Sequence record: KX266300
Reading direction: 5' to 3' (one strand)
Source: Enterobacteria phage ID11
DNA: 5,577 nt
Part shown: positions 1-5,577 of the stretch, piece after piece
Layout of the letters: each line of letters begins with the position of its first letter
Position numbering within the stretch: position 1 is the first letter of the stretch
Translations under genes and position numbers: made by a program
Notes under the pieces: generated by a model
What the model saw: the letters and a program-made list of their open reading frames with translations, nothing else
Databases searched by the model: none
Told to the model about the DNA's origin: nothing

Positions 1-3
1 TGC

Positions 4-33
4 TTGACTAATACTCAATCACCACTCTAATAT
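4..33 (+). promoter_or_regulatory. Candidate sigma70 promoter upstream of A (P_A-like), in the H-A intergenic region
   Basis: -35 TTGACT at 4-9, an 18-nt spacer, and -10 TAATAT at 28-33 (4 of 6 to consensus). The predicted start near 40 would exclude the ATG at 32 and include the GGAGG SD and ATG 59. The weak -10 makes this tentative. Confidence 0.3.
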
Positions 34-58
34 GCCTCCCATCAAACGGAGGCTTTTC

Positions 59-1723
59 ATGTTTAAAACACATTCTGACTACTTTAATAAACCTAACATC
101 GACGCTATCAAACCTCTCGTCGAAACTGCTGGTATGTCTGTTCTTACTCAATCCCCAAACCTCCGTATCTGGAAACAGTGCAATACTCGCATTAAACTAC
201 TGGAAGAAATCCTTGCTCACTACACAAATGGTATTCGCCGTGACGACAATGGTGACTTCTGGATGAATCCCAACTCTCAACTCGCAACCACTATCGCCTA
301 TCGTGCCCACCACAAAGGCCATAACCCTAAATTCAAACAATATCCAGAATCCTTTACTCTGGATGACATTATTACTGGTAAACCAATCCCTCAATCTGCC
401 CCTGACGAATTACAACTCTCCGATGAAATCGGTGAAGACTATCGCCTTACAGTCCTCTCCATAATCGAAGAATTGCAAGAATGCTACGACGTGCTCGGAC
501 AACTTGATATTAATAACACTATAGACCACAAACCCCTCGGTAATGACCACTGGGACTTACTCTATGAAAAACCCGTTTACAAACACTGGTATCAACTCGT
601 ATCAAAACGACCCCTTAAAGATATCCGCGCCGATTACAACTATGCAAAGGCGAAGGGTGTTAAGGATGAATGCTCAAAAATCTTGGAGGAATCAACTATG
701 AAGTCTCGACGTGGCTTTACCGTTCAAAGATTAATGAATGCTATGCGTACTGCCCACACTCAGGGCTGGTATGTTGTATTCGATACTCTTACTCTAGCCG
801 ATGACCGCTTAAAGGATTTCTATGATAATCCCAATGCTCTCCGTGACTACTTTCGTGATATTGGTCGTATGGTGCTTACTGCCGAGGGTCGCTCGGTGCA
901 TGACTCATCTGCCGACTGCTATCAGTATTTTTGTGTGCCAGAGTATGGTACACAGCACGGTCGTCTACATTTCCACGCAGTGCATCTTATGCGCACACTT
1001 CCTTTGGGCTCTCTGGACCCTAACTTCGGTAAGTTGGTACGCACTAATCGGCAAATAAATAGCTTGCAAAACACGTGGCCTTATGGTTACTCTATGCCCA
1101 TCGCAGTCCGGTACTCCCAAGATGCATTCTCTCGCGCTGGCTGGCTCTGGCCTGTGGACTCAAAGGGTGAACCCCTTAAAGCTACCTCGTATATGGCTGT
1201 AGGCTTCTACGTTGCTAAATACGTTAACAAAAAATCAGATATTGACATGGCCGCAAAAGGCCTAGGGAATAAAGAATGGAACAATTCACTCAAAACCAAA
1301 ATCAACCTCATACCCAAGAAAGTGTTCAGAATACGAATGTCCCGCAATTTCGGAATGAAACTGCTATCAATGTCTCACCTGTCAGCGGAAACCCTGATGG
1401 AACTGACCCAAGTGGGTTACGACGTGACCCCGTTCAACAACATCTTGAAGCAGAACGCCAAGAAAGAGCTCAAATCGAGGCTGGCAAAGAAATCTGTCGC
1501 CGACGTTTTGGAGGCGCAACCTGTGACGACCAATCTGCTAAAATTCATGCGCAATTTGACCCGAACAATCGGAGCGTCCAGCCTACAGAGTTTTATCGCT
1601 TCAATGACCACGAAATTAACAAGTACGGATATTTCTGATGAAACCAAAAACTACGTTGCTGCTGCAGGAATTGCTGTTGCTAACTTACGAATTAAATCGA
1701 AGTGGACTGCTGGTGGAAAATGA
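59..1723 (+). CDS. A: Replication initiation protein A (HUH rolling-circle endonuclease), 554 aa
   Basis: Translation aligns along its whole length with phiX174/G4 protein A as I recall it. HUH motif HFHAVH is encoded at 968-985 and the paired catalytic tyrosines (YVAKYVNK) at 1208-1231. GGAGG Shine-Dalgarno at 48-52 sits 6 nt before ATG 59. The ORF-track start at 32 is an in-frame upstream ATG with no SD. TGA stop 1721-1723 overlaps the C start codon (ATGA). Confidence 0.92.
500..529 (+). other. Viral (+) strand origin of rolling-circle replication; predicted A-protein nick between G506 and A507
   Basis: Exact match to the 30-bp origin CAACTTGATATTAATAACACTATAGACCAC conserved among phiX174-like phages (from memory). 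It lies inside gene A and encodes [10 protein letters not shown]. The A protein is known to nick CAACTTG/ATATT. Confidence 0.9.
698..1723 (+). CDS. A*: Protein A* (N-terminally truncated A from an in-frame internal start), 341 aa
   Basis: In-frame ATG at 698 opens the sequence MKSRRGF, which is where phiX174 A* begins. A strong SD GGAGGA at 685-690 lies 7 nt upstream inside the A coding sequence. The length matches phiX174 A*. Expression is inferred, not shown by sequence. Confidence 0.55.
1276..1638 (+). CDS. B: Internal scaffolding protein B, 120 aa
   Basis: Complete ORF nested inside A in another frame. Translation (MEQFTQNQ ... [15 protein letters not shown]) is clearly homologous to phiX174 B, including the conserved C-terminal FYRF..GYF. 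Weak SD AGGGA at 1264-1268. Confidence 0.9.
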
Positions 1724-1808
1724 GGAAATTCAATCTCAACTTAAAAAACTCGAGGTCGTCTTACTTCGCAACCTTTCGCCATCATCTCAACGTGCTGGCA
1801 AAGACTGA
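1638..1808 (+). CDS. K: Protein K (non-essential burst-size modulator), 56 aa
   Basis: Not in the ORF track because it is under 60 aa. ATG 1638-1640 overlaps the B stop (TGATG at 1636-1640). Translation [56 protein letters not shown] resembles phiX174 K (shared [12 protein letters not shown] core). It spans the A/C junction in the third frame; stop TGA at 1806-1808. Confidence 0.8.
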
Positions 1809-1974
1809 CGCCCTTGACGAGGAAAAATACCTAAACATGCTAGGTGCTCTCCTTAAAGACTGGTTCCGGTACGAAGAACATTTCGTACATGGTAAACAAT
1901 CAATGCTTGACATACTGAAAGAACGTGGCCTATTATCCACATCGTCAACTGACACAAACCACAAAGGAAACTGA
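1720..1974 (+). CDS. C: Protein C (ssDNA synthesis and packaging switch), 84 aa
   Basis: ATG 1720-1722 overlaps the A stop TGA 1721-1723. Translation [42 protein letters not shown]... is near-identical in pattern to phiX174 C. The track ORF at 1702 is only an upstream extension to a GTG. Confidence 0.9.
1907..1936 (+). promoter_or_regulatory. Candidate sigma70 promoter upstream of D (P_D-like)
   Basis: Perfect -35 TTGACA at 1907-1912, an 18-nt spacer, and -10 TATTAT at 1931-1936. The predicted start is about 1943-1945, roughly 30 nt before the D SD and ATG. Position inside C matches the known P_D arrangement in phiX174. Confidence 0.45.
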
Positions 1975-1975
1975 A

Positions 1976-2434
1976 ATGTCTAAATCAAACGAATCTGCTG
2001 TAGCCTTTCAAACCGCTATTGCTTCTATCAAACTTATTCAAGCCTCTTCTGTTCTTGACCTGACAGAGGACGACTTTGACTTCTTAACTCGCGACCGTGT
2101 CTGGATTGCTACCGACCGCTCACGCGCTCGCCGTGCTATCGAGGCCTGCGTATATGGAACACTGGACTTTGTCGGGTATCCTCGCTTTCCTGCTCCTGTT
2201 GAGTTTATTGCTGCCGTCATTGCTTATTATGTTCATCCCGTTAACATTCAAACCGCCTGCCTCATCATGGAAGGCGCTGAGTTTACCGAAAACATCGTCA
2301 ATGGTGTTGAACGCCCAGTTAAAGCCTCTGAACTGTTCGCCTTCACTCTTCTCGTTCGCGGCGGAAACAAAGATCTTATCGGTCACGCTGAAACAAACAT
2401 CCGTGAACAATTACGTGCTCAAGGTGTTATGTAA
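1976..2434 (+). CDS. D: External scaffolding protein D, 152 aa
   Basis: Translation from MSKSNESAVAFQTAIASIKLIQAS... is highly similar to phiX174 D over its full length. SD AAGGA at 1964-1968 lies 7 nt before the ATG. Start is 1 nt after the C stop (TGAAATG). The track ORF start at 1925 is an upstream in-frame extension. Confidence 0.95.
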   Translation: MSKSNESAVAFQTAIASIKLIQASSVLDLTEDDFDFLTRDRVWIATDRSRARRAIEACVYGTLDFVGYPRFPAPVEFIAAVIAYYVHPVNIQTACLIMEGAEFTENIVNGVERPVKASELFAFTLLVRGGNKDLIGHAETNIREQLRAQGVM

Positions 2435-2444
2435 AGACCTCTGA
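2154..2444 (+). CDS. E: Lysis protein E (single-gene lysis, MraY inhibitor family), 96 aa
   Basis: Nested in D in the +1 frame. N-terminal hydrophobic helix MEHWTLSGILAFLLLLSLLLPSLLIMFIPLTF carries the conserved Pro21, followed by a basic C-terminal region, as in phiX174 E. Stop TGA at 2442-2444 is 10 nt past the D stop. The track ORF begins at an upstream GTG (2097). Confidence 0.85.
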   Translation: MEHWTLSGILAFLLLLSLLLPSLLIMFIPLTFKPPASSWKALSLPKTSSMVLNAQLKPLNCSPSLFSFAAETKILSVTLKQTSVNNYVLKVLCKDL

Positions 2445-2476
2445 TCTTATCGTCTTCACTTTTAAGGAGTTATGTA

Positions 2477-2554
2477 ATGAAAAAATCAATTCGCCGATCT
2501 GGTGGTAAATCCAAAGGTGCCCGTCTCTGGTATGTAGGCGGAACGCAATACTAA
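2477..2554 (+). CDS. J: Small basic DNA-binding/packaging protein J, 25 aa
   Basis: Not in the ORF track (short). Translation MKKSIRRSGGKSKGARLWYVGGTQY is basic and shares the C-terminal RLWYVGG motif with phiX174 J. The 25-aa length is G4-type (phiX174 J is 38 aa). SD AAGGAG at 2464-2469 lies 7 nt before the ATG. Confidence 0.9.
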   Translation: MKKSIRRSGGKSKGARLWYVGGTQY

Positions 2555-2562
2555 TTACTTAT

Positions 2563-2587
2563 GTGGGACCGCGGTCCTACTCTATTT
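2563..2587 (+). terminator. Candidate weak intrinsic terminator or mRNA-stabilising hairpin in the J-F spacer
   Basis: GC-rich palindrome GTGGGAC-CGCG-GTCCTAC (7-bp stem 2563-2569/2574-2580, 4-nt loop) followed by TCTATTT. It lies between the J stop (2554) and the F SD (2588). phiX-type phages are known to have leaky terminators after J, F, G and H. Confidence 0.3.
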
Positions 2588-2599
2588 AAGGATACAAAA

Positions 2600-3883
2600 A
2601 TGTCTAACGTTCAAGCTTCTGCGGACCGTGTACCTCATGACTTATCTCACCTTGTCTTTGAGGCTGGTAAAATCGGTCGCCTCAAAACTATCTCTTGGAC
2701 GCCTGTTGTTGCTGGTGACTCTTTCGAGTGTGATATGGTTGGCGCTATTCGCCTTTCCCCTCTTCGTCGCGGCCTCGCTGTTGACTCACGTGTTGACGTC
2801 TTTTCTTTCTACATTCCACACCGTCATATCTACGGTCAGCAATGGATTGACTTTATGAAGGATGGCATTAATGCCGCTCCCCTTCCTCCTGTCACATGCT
2901 CTTCTGGTTGGGATGCTGCCGCTTATCTCGGTACTATTCCGTCCTCTAACCTTAAAGTGCCTAAATTCTTACATCAGGGCTATCTGAATATTTATAATAA
3001 CTACTTCAAACCGCCTTGGTCTGATGACTTAACTTACGCTAACCCATCCAATATGCCTTCTGAGGATTATAAATGGGGCGTACGTGTCGCTAACCTGAAA
3101 TCTATCTGGACTGCGCCACTTCCACCGGATACCCGTACATCTGAAAACATGACTACTGGTACATCCACTATTGACATTATGGGCCTTCAAGCCGCATACG
3201 CTAAATTACATACGGAACAGGAACGTGATTACTTCATGACCCGTTACCGTGACATTATGAAAGAGTTCGGCGGTCATACATCCTATGATGGTGACAATCG
3301 TCCTCTTCTGCTCATGCGTTCTGAGTTCTGGGCCTCTGGCTATGACGTAGACGGTACTGACCAATCTTCTCTCGGTCAATTCTCTGGTCGCGTTCAGCAG
3401 ACCTTTAATCACAAAGTGCCACGCTTCTATGTTCCTGAGCATGGCGTAATTATGACTCTGGCGGTTACTCGCTTCCCGCCTACTCATGAAATGGAAATGC
3501 ACTATCTTGTAGGCAAGGAAAATTTAACCTATACCGATATTGCTTGTGACCCTGCACTGATGGCCAACCTGCCACCGCGTGAAGTGTCCTTAAAAGAATT
3601 CTTCCACTCATCACCCGATTCTGCTAAATTCAAAATCGCTGAGGGCCAATGGTATCGTACACAGCCTGACCGTGTCGCTTTCCCATATAATGCTCTGGAT
3701 GGATTCCCGTTCTACTCTGCTCTCCCGTCCACGAAACTAAAAGACCGTGTACTGGTTAACACTGATAACTACGATGAAATCTTCCAGTCTATGCAGCTTG
3801 CACACTGGAATATGCAAACTAAATTTAACATTAACGTTTATCGTCACATGCCTACGACTCGTGACTCAATCATGACCTCGTAA
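2600..3883 (+). CDS. F: Major capsid protein F, 427 aa
   Basis: Translation from MSNVQASADRVPHDLSHL... aligns with phiX174 F throughout (for example GDSFE, LRLSPLRRGLA, YLNIYNNYFK, IWTAPLPP, IDIMGLQAAYA, DGTDQSSLGQFSGRVQQT, LPTTRDSIMTS). SD AAGGA at 2588-2592 lies 7 nt before ATG 2600. The track ORF start at 2561 is an upstream extension. Confidence 0.95.
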   Translation: MSNVQASADRVPHDLSHLVFEAGKIGRLKTISWTPVVAGDSFECDMVGAIRLSPLRRGLAVDSRVDVFSFYIPHRHIYGQQWIDFMKDGINAAPLPPVTCSSGWDAAAYLGTIPSSNLKVPKFLHQGYLNIYNNYFKPPWSDDLTYANPSNMPSEDYKWGVRVANLKSIWTAPLPPDTRTSENMTTGTSTIDIMGLQAAYAKLHTEQERDYFMTRYRDIMKEFGGHTSYDGDNRPLLLMRSEFWASGYDVDGTDQSSLGQFSGRVQQTFNHKVPRFYVPEHGVIMTLAVTRFPPTHEMEMHYLVGKENLTYTDIACDPALMANLPPREVSLKEFFHSSPDSAKFKIAEGQWYRTQPDRVAFPYNALDGFPFYSALPSTKLKDRVLVNTDNYDEIFQSMQLAHWNMQTKFNINVYRHMPTTRDSIMTS

Positions 3884-3892
3884 CGCAACAAA

Positions 3893-3998
3893 GGCCGCCC
3901 CTCTACTGGTCAGATACCTGCCCAATGTGGGGCGGACCGTGCCTACGGAGACACCCGAGTCTCCGATACATGGACGGCGAAAGCCGCCGTCCCTACTG
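3893..3998 (+). other. Complementary (-) strand origin, G4-type: three stem-loops plus a CTG primase start site in the F-G intergenic region
   Basis: The 136-nt F-G spacer (3884-4019) holds three hairpins readable from the sequence: 3893-3901/3929-3938 (9 bp with one bulged A, 27-nt loop), 3946-3952/3959-3965 (7 bp, 6-nt loop) and 3972-3979/3985-3992 (8 bp, 5-nt loop). CTG at 3996-3998 follows the last hairpin. The reverse complement of 3972-3997 is AGUAGGGACGGCGGCUUUCGCCGUCC, which matches my recollection of the G4 primer RNA 5' end. Confidence 0.7.
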
Positions 3999-4019
3999 CA
4001 AAGCCAAAAGGACTAACAT

Positions 4020-4553
4020 ATGTTCCAGAAATTCATTTCTAAGCACAATGCTCCAATTAACTCTACTCAGCTTGCTGCTACTAAAACCCCGGCTGTCACG
4101 GCACCTGTTTTATCTGTGCCTGACTTAAGCCGCTCTACTATTCAAATCAATGCAACAACCACAGCCGTTACAACTCATTCAGGCTTGTGCCATGTTGTTC
4201 GCATTGATGAAACAAACCCAACAAATCATCACGCTCTATCTATTGCAGGTTCGTTGTCAAACGTCCCTGCTGATATGATTGCTTTTGCCATTCGTTTTGA
4301 GGTCGCTGATGGCGTCGTTCCTACTGCCGTTCCGGCCTTATACGACGTCTATCCAATCGAAACCTTCAATAACGGCAAAGCAATCTCATTTAAAGATGCT
4401 GTTACCATCGACTCACATCCCCGCACCGTCGGTAACGACGTTTATGCGGGAATTATGCTCTGGTCTAACGCTTGGACCGCCTCTACTATCTCTGGCGTCC
4501 TCTCTGTTAATCAGGTAAACCGTGAAGCAACCGTCCTTCAACCTCTGAAATAA
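4020..4553 (+). CDS. G: Major spike protein G, 177 aa
   Basis: N-terminus [10 protein letters not shown] and C-terminus ...[18 protein letters not shown] match phiX174 G (MFQTFISRHN ... LQPLK). The interior is divergent but collinear, as expected for the host-range spike. SD AAGGA at 4008-4012 lies 7 nt before the ATG. Confidence 0.92.
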
Positions 4554-4563
4554 GGATTATCCT

Positions 4564-5577
4564 ATGTTTGGCGCTATCGCTGGCGGTATCGCCTCCGCAC
4601 TTGCCGGAGGCCTTACGGGTAAATTATTTGGCGGCGGTCAGTCCGCCAACTCTACCGGAATCCAAGGCAACGTCCTTGCTTCCGACAACAATGTTGTAGG
4701 TGCTAATGATGCTGGTATTAAATCTGCTATTCAGGGCTCTACTGTCCCTAACTCTCAGGAAGCTGCCCCCTCTGCTATCTCTGGTATCCTTGCCGACACT
4801 GGCAAGCATGCGCTCTCGTCTCTTACCAATGCTGGTACAAATAAACTTATGGAAGCTGTCGGCCTTTCTAAATCTGCCTCTGACAAGGGCAAAGACACAA
4901 AAGACTATCTCGCCTCCGCATTCCCCGAGCTCAACCCATGGGAACGTGCTGGCGCTGGTGCTTCTGGTGCAGGCATGCAAGATGCTGGTTTCCAAAATCA
5001 GAAAGAGCTAACCAAAATGCAGCTTGACAACCAAAAGGAAATCGCTAAGATGCAAAACGAAACTCAGAAGGAAATCGCTGGGCTTCAATCTGTTACATCA
5101 CGCGAAAATACTAAGGATACTGTCTATGCTCAAAATGAAATGCTCGCGTATAACCAAAAAGAGTCTATGTCACGCGTTGGCGCTATTCTCGAAAACACAA
5201 GCCTCACCAAACAACAACAAACTTCTGAAATTATGCGGCAAATGCTTACTCAGGCTCAAACCGCAGGTCAATATTTTACAAATGACCAAATCAAGGAGCT
5301 TACGAGAAAAGTTGGTGCTGATATTGATGCTGTTCGCGCTAACACTGCACGCACCTATGTAGAAACCGACCGCTCAAAACAGGAAGTACAAAACTCCCGT
5401 TATGCCTCTTCTCAGGTAGGCAAAACCGCTAAGGACGTGTCCAATGCAGTTACTGATACAGCTAGTTCTATTGTTGATTATTTTCGTGGTGTTGATCAAA
5501 AAGTGGCAGACGTTTACAACAACTATTTCAAAGATGGCAAATCGAAAGGAATAGAATCCAATCACCGCTCCAAATAA
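4564..5577 (+). CDS. H: Minor spike / DNA pilot protein H, 337 aa
   Basis: Gly-rich hydrophobic N-terminus [16 protein letters not shown], a central region [27 protein letters not shown] and the segment [22 protein letters not shown] are near-identical to phiX174 H. SD AAGGA at 4552-4556 lies 7 nt before the ATG. The stop is the last codon of the window. Confidence 0.93.

Follow-up and report, generated by a model that had tools for sequence, protein, structure and literature searches.

The stretch of DNA analysed here (5,577 nt, taken at its full length and called the window below) raises the question of whether it is a complete circular microvirus genome or part of a larger replicon, and, if complete, which phage it represents. 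The first-pass annotation, made from the sequence alone, had read it as an entire circular genome belonging to the G4 lineage and not to phiX174 itself, and had seen no novelty in it. The top matches of the window were exclusively Bullavirinae microviruses. The ID11 record AY751298.1, whose taxonomy line is Gequatrovirus G4, aligned over 5577 of 5577 bases from the same start coordinate with three substitutions, and the RefSeq G4 genome (NC_001420.2) aligned gap-free over 5577 nt at 96.70% identity, with 184 substitutions (3.3%). In ICTV practice the species threshold is about 95% whole-genome identity, and the identity to G4 places the window within the species Gequatrovirus G4. The window is almost certainly the full genome, presumably circular and single-stranded DNA, of coliphage ID11 (Gequatrovirus G4, Microviridae, Bullavirinae). 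It carries 2615 A>G together with 2361 C>G and 2578 C>T, the alpha_2A/F5 endpoint genotype of an adaptation experiment discussed below. It is an ordinary genome and already known.

Genomes of Bullavirinae are circular, single-stranded DNA molecules of about 5.3-6.1 kb with the genes A, A*, B, C, D, E, F, G, H, J and K on one strand. The window, at 5577 nt, has eleven intact genes on the + strand with overprinting, all of which start with ATG, end in a single terminal stop and occupy the annotated coordinates of G4, each in one copy:

59-1723, + strand: gene A, rolling-circle replication initiator, 554 aa (annotation of AY751298.1 and NC_001420.2; Pfam Phage_GPA, 204 bits)
698-1723, + strand: gene A*, from an internal start in A at 698 (annotation of AY751298.1 and NC_001420.2)
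1276-1638, + strand: gene B, internal scaffolding protein, overprinted inside A (Pfam Phage_B, 168 bits)
1638-1808, + strand: gene K, across the A/C boundary (Pfam Protein_K, 59.8 bits)
1720-1974, + strand: gene C, DNA maturation and packaging (Pfam Phage_C, 130.5 bits)
1976-2434, + strand: gene D, external scaffolding protein, A129G through 2361 C>G (Pfam gpD, 274.5 bits)
2154-2444, + strand: gene E, lysis protein, overprinted inside D, P70A through 2361 C>G (Pfam Microvir_lysis, 77.1 bits)
2477-2554, + strand: gene J, DNA-binding protein, 25 aa (Pfam Microvir_J, 60.8 bits)
2600-3883, + strand: gene F, major coat protein, 427 aa, T6A through 2615 A>G (Pfam Phage_F, 560.6 bits)
4020-4553, + strand: gene G, major spike protein, 177 aa (Pfam Phage_G, 122.3 bits)
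4564-5577, + strand: gene H, minor spike/DNA pilot protein, 337 aa (Pfam Microvir_H, 464.1 bits)

All 10 distinct products exceeded the gathering scores of microvirus families in Pfam, and the scores of D, G, F, H and J were all above the curated cut-offs; to our knowledge, Gokushovirinae have neither the external scaffolding protein D nor the major spike protein G. The coding share of the window is 94.9%, and 1392 bases lie within at least two genes. Searching the window with Rfam at gathering thresholds returned no matches, and ARAGORN predicted no tRNA or tmRNA genes in it. The first-pass annotation had listed all eleven phiX174-group genes once each on one strand, had given the sizes of J, A, F, G and H as tabulated here, and had noted that A is preceded by 58 nt and that the window closes with the stop codon of H. 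All of this agrees with our map, in which A begins at 59 and H, stop codon included, runs up to base 5577. The point of linearisation is the conventional G4 coordinate 1, which is the first base past the H stop codon.

Two replication origins were located in the window:

500-529, + strand: viral (+) strand origin, the 30-mer CAACTTGATATTAATAACACTATAGACCAC, inside gene A (exact match, 30 of 30)
3884-4019, + strand: F-G intergenic region, G4-type complementary-strand origin as predicted (134 of 136 bases as in G4)

The same 30-mer was found exactly in phiX174 (record positions 4299-4328), G4, ID11, ID41 and lillemer. In phiX174 and G4 it is recognised and nicked by protein A, and by analogy with G4 rolling-circle replication would involve nicking by protein A within its own gene. 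The F-G spacer, folded as single-stranded DNA, formed three main hairpins (about 3893-3938, 3946-3965 and 3972-3992) at -31 kcal/mol (z = -5.1), and none of the 200 shuffles was as good; the earlier description of this spacer as hairpin-rich was accurate. In coordinates shared with the window, NC_001420.2 annotates an 'RNA primer of replication' at 3970-3997 and an 'origin of compl. strand synthesis' at 3998. The spacer has the features of a complementary-strand origin of the G4 type, where host primase would prime synthesis at the hairpins as it does in G4.

The remaining steps of the life cycle may also proceed as in G4. Promoters ahead of A, B and D would give rise to overlapping transcripts, which leaky terminators behind J, F, G and H would attenuate; the F/G/H procapsid would be scaffolded by B and D and the DNA packaged by C and J; and lysis would be brought about by E. 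Three features bear on the promoters:

1-58, + strand: H-A intergenic region (no difference from G4 in 58 positions)
4-33, + strand: promoter-like site for gene A, TTGACT at 4-9, an 18-nt spacer and TAATAT at 28-33 (consensus scan)
1907-1936, + strand: D-promoter-like site, TTGACA, an 18-nt spacer and TATTAT, 11 of 12 matches (consensus scan)

The H-A region further contains, at 34-57, a GC-rich hairpin with a T-run, whose 3' arm holds the GGAGG ribosome-binding site of A, and its layout is also found in lillemer and phiX174. The consensus scan of the whole window gave 8 promoter-like sites compared with 7.8 in shuffles, which is no enrichment, so that the site at 4-33 is backed by its position and conservation and not by statistics. 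Among the scanned sites only those at 4-33 and 1907-1936 were judged credible, through position and literature. The D-promoter mutations 1910aG and 1911cT map to the latter site (Miller et al. 2016, PMC4958007); neither is present in the window, where the site is ancestral. The first-pass annotation was right that a short H-A region with a promoter-like -35 exists, but not that joining the ends recreates it, since the region and the site at 4-33 both lie wholly at the start of the window, inside 1-58. The only effect of joining the ends is that the stop codon of H comes to lie upstream of the -35 hexamer, at a distance of 3 nt.

The window differs from AY751298.1 by 2361 C>G, 2578 C>T and 2615 A>G, of which the first changes two overlapping products, D and E. 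Miller et al. (2016, PeerJ 4:e2227, PMC4958007) carried out a 100-passage adaptation experiment and deposited 338 isolates (KX266300-KX266637). In their supplement, the entry alpha_2A_F5_1 has exactly 2361.C.G, 2578.C.T and 2615.A.G. According to the same study, the F5 background (F5 being T6A in the coat protein) has 2615.A.G as its ancestral mutation, 2578.C.T is classed 'J.term', and 2361 C>G, found in 5 isolates from a single well, is listed among the changes suspected of affecting E. The per-well tree places 2361.C.G and 2578.C.T in 5 isolates, i.e. all of well alpha_2A, and the two changes co-arose in that one well. By the published mutation table, the window, which carries these three changes and no further differences, matches the genotype of the alpha_2A/F5 isolates; with the genotype already in print, the first-pass annotation was correct in expecting no novelty. 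The window is most probably the deposited record KX266300 or one of four identical sibling isolates, and no difference from these isolates is expected. This assignment is drawn from the mutation table and from the order of the accessions: KX266301, KX266303 and KX266304, which come from other wells, follow the sample list of the study, and that list opens with alpha_2A_F5_1. The analysis covered 333 of the 338 deposited isolates. Positions 2361, 2578 and 2615 go unmentioned in two other ID11 papers, PMC3922989 and PMC3183071.

The window could instead be a natural environmental ID11-like or G4-like phage, its three differences being natural polymorphisms, and close natural relatives do exist, for example the G4-clade isolate ID41, which differs from the window at 28 sites. 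We consider this very improbable. The three differences make up a published laboratory genotype, composed of an engineered or selected F5 background and two de novo mutations of one well. Among the 353 other G4-clade records compared, natural isolates included, 2361G and 2578T each occurred in none (2615G was found in 15). Moreover, a natural relative would be expected to have some extra neutral differences from the laboratory ancestor, and the window has none.

For the laboratory-evolved ID11 genome, the possible effects of the three substitutions can be considered together with the structure in which one of them lies:

2563-2587, + strand: J-F intergenic terminator hairpin ('J terminator'), GTGGGAC-CGCG-GTCCTAC followed by TCTATTT (RNA fold; carries 2578 C>T)

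The substitution 2578 C>T turns a G-C pair of the stem into a G-U pair, and the RNA fold of the J terminator is -10.8 kcal/mol in the window vs -13.1 kcal/mol in the reference ID11, i.e. about 2.3 kcal/mol weaker. The weaker terminator may allow more read-through into F, G and H. The change 2615 A>G is a pre-existing, first-step beneficial change of the capsid, and 2361 C>G, suspected by Miller et al. of affecting the lysis protein E, may delay lysis. In nearly all other lineages of that experiment, delayed lysis and higher yield were reached via D-promoter mutations (PMC4958007). We might speculate that 2361 C>G and 2578 C>T jointly formed a distinct route to the delayed-lysis, higher-yield phenotype, in which the terminator change rebalanced the dosage of F, G and H against the altered D and E products, though we hold this reading as tentative and rather less probable than its opposite. 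If true, a separate route to delayed lysis would be a small addition to a published experimental-evolution study and not a new biological system.

As to circularity, the window coincides with the ID11 and G4 records, which are annotated circular (bases 1-5577). When the window was rotated and compared with the differently permuted phage lillemer, a single alignment of 2452 nt at 83.4% identity spanned the end/start junction. This alignment indicates that the end-to-start join of the window is a natural adjacency, and together with the circular-annotated records it supports a circular genome. A search for terminal redundancy or assembly overlap found no repeat joining both ends of the window. 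The repeat families in the window are all short, imperfect and chance-like. Among 5,426 complete E. coli genomes megablast found no match to the window, and in the PLSDB plasmids its sole hits were six phiX174 units of 5386 bp, with about 76% identity. That the window is a fragment, chimera or mis-assembly from a larger replicon (prophage, plasmid, concatemer) is also very improbable: circular topology is not provable from a linear sequence alone, and some microviruses (gokushoviruses, not Bullavirinae) occur as prophages according to the literature, but the window is as long as the circular reference records and begins and ends where they do, it has no truncated or duplicated genes, no terminal direct repeats and no counterpart in the E. 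coli genomes or in plasmids other than phiX174 units, and its junction is collinear with lillemer. The first-pass annotation had proposed comparison with G4 and other Bullavirinae, including a check of the circular permutation, and had named flanking bacterial sequence, a missing gene or best hits outside Microviridae as signs against an entire genome; the permuted alignment ran across the junction and none of these signs was found.

Few phage genomes have been characterised as thoroughly as those of G4 and ID11. The practical value of the analysis is one of bookkeeping, in that the window can be labelled a complete, non-chimeric laboratory genome of ID11, whose three variant sites are traceable to a documented adaptation experiment and not to natural diversity or sequencing error. 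Its importance for discovery is very small.

Compared with known phages, the window is nearest to ID11 (AY751298.1; Rokyta et al. 2005/2006), with which it shares the length of 5577 nt, the start, the eleven gene coordinates and 5574 of 5577 bases, and from whose wild-type reference it departs at 2361, 2578 and 2615. G4 (NC_001420.2; Godson et al. 1978), the type of the genus Gequatrovirus, has the same length and gene coordinates. Its H-A and G-H spacers and its proteins C and J are identical to those of the window and the other proteins are 96-99% identical, except the lysis protein E, which is only 88.5% identical (11 of 96 residues different). The relation to phiX174 (Sinsheimervirus) is more distant. 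The eleven-gene architecture and the 30-nt viral-strand origin are the same, and the H-A spacer of phiX174, like that of the window, has a -35-like TTGAC, a GCCTCC/GGAGGC hairpin, a T-run and the ATG of A. The phiX174 genome, however, is 5386 nt long vs 5577 nt here, and megablast aligned the two over only about 18% of the genome, at about 78% identity and within gene A/B, whereas G4 aligned throughout; the earlier assignment to the G4 lineage and not to phiX174 stands on this contrast. The two phages also differ in complementary-strand priming, which in phiX174 goes via the PriA-dependent primosome, whereas in G4 primase acts directly at the hairpins.

The sequence is the whole genome of a laboratory-evolved isolate of a classic model phage; it has been published before, and is ordinary and already known. 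Through megablast against 50,697 phage records, 566 records were matched, nearly all named as Enterobacteria, Escherichia, Salmonella or Shigella phages or as Sinsheimervirus, and among the matches listed all belonged to Bullavirinae. The microvirus matches included one phage record each for 'Protaetiibacter' and 'Mycolicibacterium', hosts unexpected for Bullavirinae-like sequence; phiX174 contamination may account for both. The best match was coliphage ID11 (AY751298.1, circular, 5577 nt, species Gequatrovirus G4 in its taxonomy line), with 1-5577 aligned to 1-5577, and base-by-base comparison revealed three substitutions. Judged by nucleotide sequence, the precise strain is ID11.

Substitutions relative to AY751298.1
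2361, C>G: A129G in D; P70A in the overlapping frame of E
2578, C>T: J-F spacer
2615, A>G: T6A in F

Searching 353 G4-clade records with 61-mers centred on each site, we found neither 2361G nor 2578T, and 2615G in 15 laboratory clones; the phage collection includes 333 ID11 records for which E. coli C is the host. In the study of Miller et al. 2016 (PeerJ 4:e2227, PMC4958007), ID11 variants that each started with one of nine first-step beneficial mutations were adapted over 100 passages, and 338 endpoint isolates were deposited (KX266300-KX266637); the 333 records are five short of that number, and KX266300 is not among them. In their supplementary mutation table, isolate alpha_2A_F5_1 (well alpha_2A, background F5) contains exactly 2361.C.G, 2578.C.T and 2615.A.G, the same set as in the window, no more and no less. 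In the per-well tree, background F5 is 2615.A.G, and 2361.C.G and 2578.C.T occur jointly in five isolates; '2361cG (5 isolates)' is restricted to one well (PMC4958007). KX266301 (alpha_4A_J15_1), KX266303 (alpha_8A_F182_1) and KX266304 (alpha_1B_F178_1) are numbered in the order in which the paper lists its samples, beginning with alpha_2A_F5_1. From genotype and accession order, the window is probably KX266300.1 or one of four siblings identical to it. In well alpha_4C, also of F5 background, the starting mutation was reverted (2615.G.A, PMC4958007 supplement), which helps account for only those 15 deposited clones in the collection retaining 2615G.

The starting change, 2615 A>G, is a first-step beneficial capsid mutation (PMC4958007). 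The same study lists 2361 C>G among changes within gene E or immediately 5' of it that never occurred together with D-promoter mutations, and its authors group the gene E-associated changes as suspected lysis delayers, having assayed members other than 2361 C>G. Base comparison with AY751298.1 revealed no D-promoter mutation in the window, which fits the published non-co-occurrence pattern. The 2578 C>T change, at a site labelled 'J.term' in the tables of PMC4958007, falls on the 3' side of the J-F hairpin stem (2563-2580, with TCTATTT next); it turns a G-C pair into a G-U pair and makes the predicted stem less stable (-13.1 to -10.8 kcal/mol), from which we infer that read-through into F, G and H might be somewhat increased. 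Since 2361 C>G and 2578 C>T co-arose in a single well, each by itself is only a candidate adaptive change.

Genes in the window (ORF list and annotation of AY751298.1; Pfam families named all scored above the curated cut-off)
59-1723, +, A, 554 aa, Phage_GPA
698-1723, +, A*, annotation of best match
1276-1638, +, B, Phage_B
1638-1808, +, K, Protein_K
1720-1974, +, C, Phage_C
1976-2434, +, D, gpD
2154-2444, +, E, within D, Microvir_lysis
2477-2554, +, J, 25 aa, Microvir_J
2600-3883, +, F, 427 aa, Phage_F
4020-4553, +, G, 177 aa, Phage_G
4564-5577, +, H, 337 aa, Microvir_H

Translated at these coordinates, all eleven genes had an ATG start and one terminal stop, and the ten distinct products each exceeded the curated cut-off of the corresponding microvirus family. 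ORFs, translations and Pfam scores thus agree with the first-pass annotation of eleven genes on one strand, and its lengths for A, J, F, G and H were recovered unchanged; the window does start 58 nt upstream of A, and its final base is also that of the H stop codon. An ATG at 32, in frame with A, would add nine residues (563 aa); it sits within the -10 hexamer/hairpin region with no ribosome-binding site upstream, and GGAGG lies 6 nt before the annotated start at 59. The translation-initiation regions of D (1964-1983, AAGGAAACTGAAATGTCTAA) and F (2588-2607, AAGGATACAAAAATGTCTAA) showed 85% identity; both proteins begin Met-Ser, and both are highly expressed structural or scaffolding proteins.

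Fragment, chimera and larger-replicon readings were rejected, because length and end points equal those of reference records that are circular, no gene is cut short or present twice, the repeat search of the window revealed no repeat linking its ends, the junction is contiguous in a relative, and megablast against 5,426 complete E. coli genomes gave no match. For the junction, the last 250 and first 250 bases were joined into a 500-nt query, of which positions 1-490 aligned as a single piece within the record of phage lillemer (MN850599.1), which starts at another point of the circle and gives the opposite strand; a 2900-nt piece of the rotated window gave one 2452-nt HSP (83.4%) across the junction, and in lillemer, as here, H stop and A start are 58 nt apart. 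The earlier claim of an entire circular genome is therefore supported. In the plasmid collection (PLSDB), the only matches were six 5386-bp units with phiX174 length and gene names (NZ_OR345925.1, NZ_AP024892.1, NZ_AP024868.1, NZ_AP026443.1, NZ_AP028091.1 and NZ_AP024880.1), from E. coli, Vibrio, Cellulomonas and Edwardsiella assemblies, which are probably misfiled Illumina spike-in control DNA.

The 30-nt sequence CAACTTGATATTAATAACACTATAGACCAC was found exactly at 500-529 within gene A, and also in phiX174 (record 4299-4328), G4, ID41 and lillemer; we take it to be the viral-strand origin, following the established phiX174/G4 literature. The F-G spacer (136 nt), presumably the complementary-strand origin on the same grounds, folded as single-stranded DNA into three main hairpins (-31 kcal/mol; z = -5.1; 0 of 200 shuffles equally stable). 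It differs from that of G4 at 2 of 136 bases, and in the G4 RefSeq annotation the replication primer occupies 3970-3997 and complementary-strand synthesis originates at 3998, coordinates equal in the window.

The H-A spacer, identical in G4, contains a promoter-like TTGACT, 18-nt spacer and TAATAT at 4-33 upstream of A; this site lies wholly inside the window, and is not recreated by joining the ends as had been proposed. A strong promoter-like site (11/12 matches) is at 1907-1936. Both are presumed to function as in the phiX174/G4 literature. At 34-57, a GCCTCC/GGAGGC hairpin with a T-run was found; over 34-61 it forms a terminator-like GCCTCC-CATCAAAC-GGAGGC plus TTTT directly 5' of the gene A ATG, and its 3' arm is the Shine-Dalgarno sequence (ribosome-binding site) of A. 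The stem is the same in lillemer (loop ATTAACAC) and phiX174 (loop AAATCTT). The invariant stem with varying loop, together with the Shine-Dalgarno position, suggests a single element both terminating H transcripts and limiting A translation. The site at 1907-1936 matches what the experimental-evolution literature (PMC4958007) calls the D promoter.

The first-pass finding was correct as a whole: a whole microvirus genome of G4 lineage, with no novelty. The natural isolate ID41 differs from the window at 28 sites. Alignment to G4 isolate G4_1_FR (JF719729.1) stops at 5510 because the last 67 positions of that record (5511-5577) are N, and its gene H is annotated as incomplete. G4 (NC_001420.2) has equal length and gene coordinates, with 184 ungapped differences (96.70% identity); proteins C and J show no differences, identity is 96-99% for A, B, K, D, F, G and H, and E stands out as by far the most diverged (88.5% amino acid identity). 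In the E region, 12 nucleotide differences cause 11 amino acid differences in E, whereas the overlapping D is 98.7% identical, which is the usual asymmetry for an overprinted gene. In contrast to the 96.70% identity with G4, megablast aligned only about 18% of the window to phiX174, at about 78% identity, and the assignment to the G4 lineage rather than phiX174 is therefore right.
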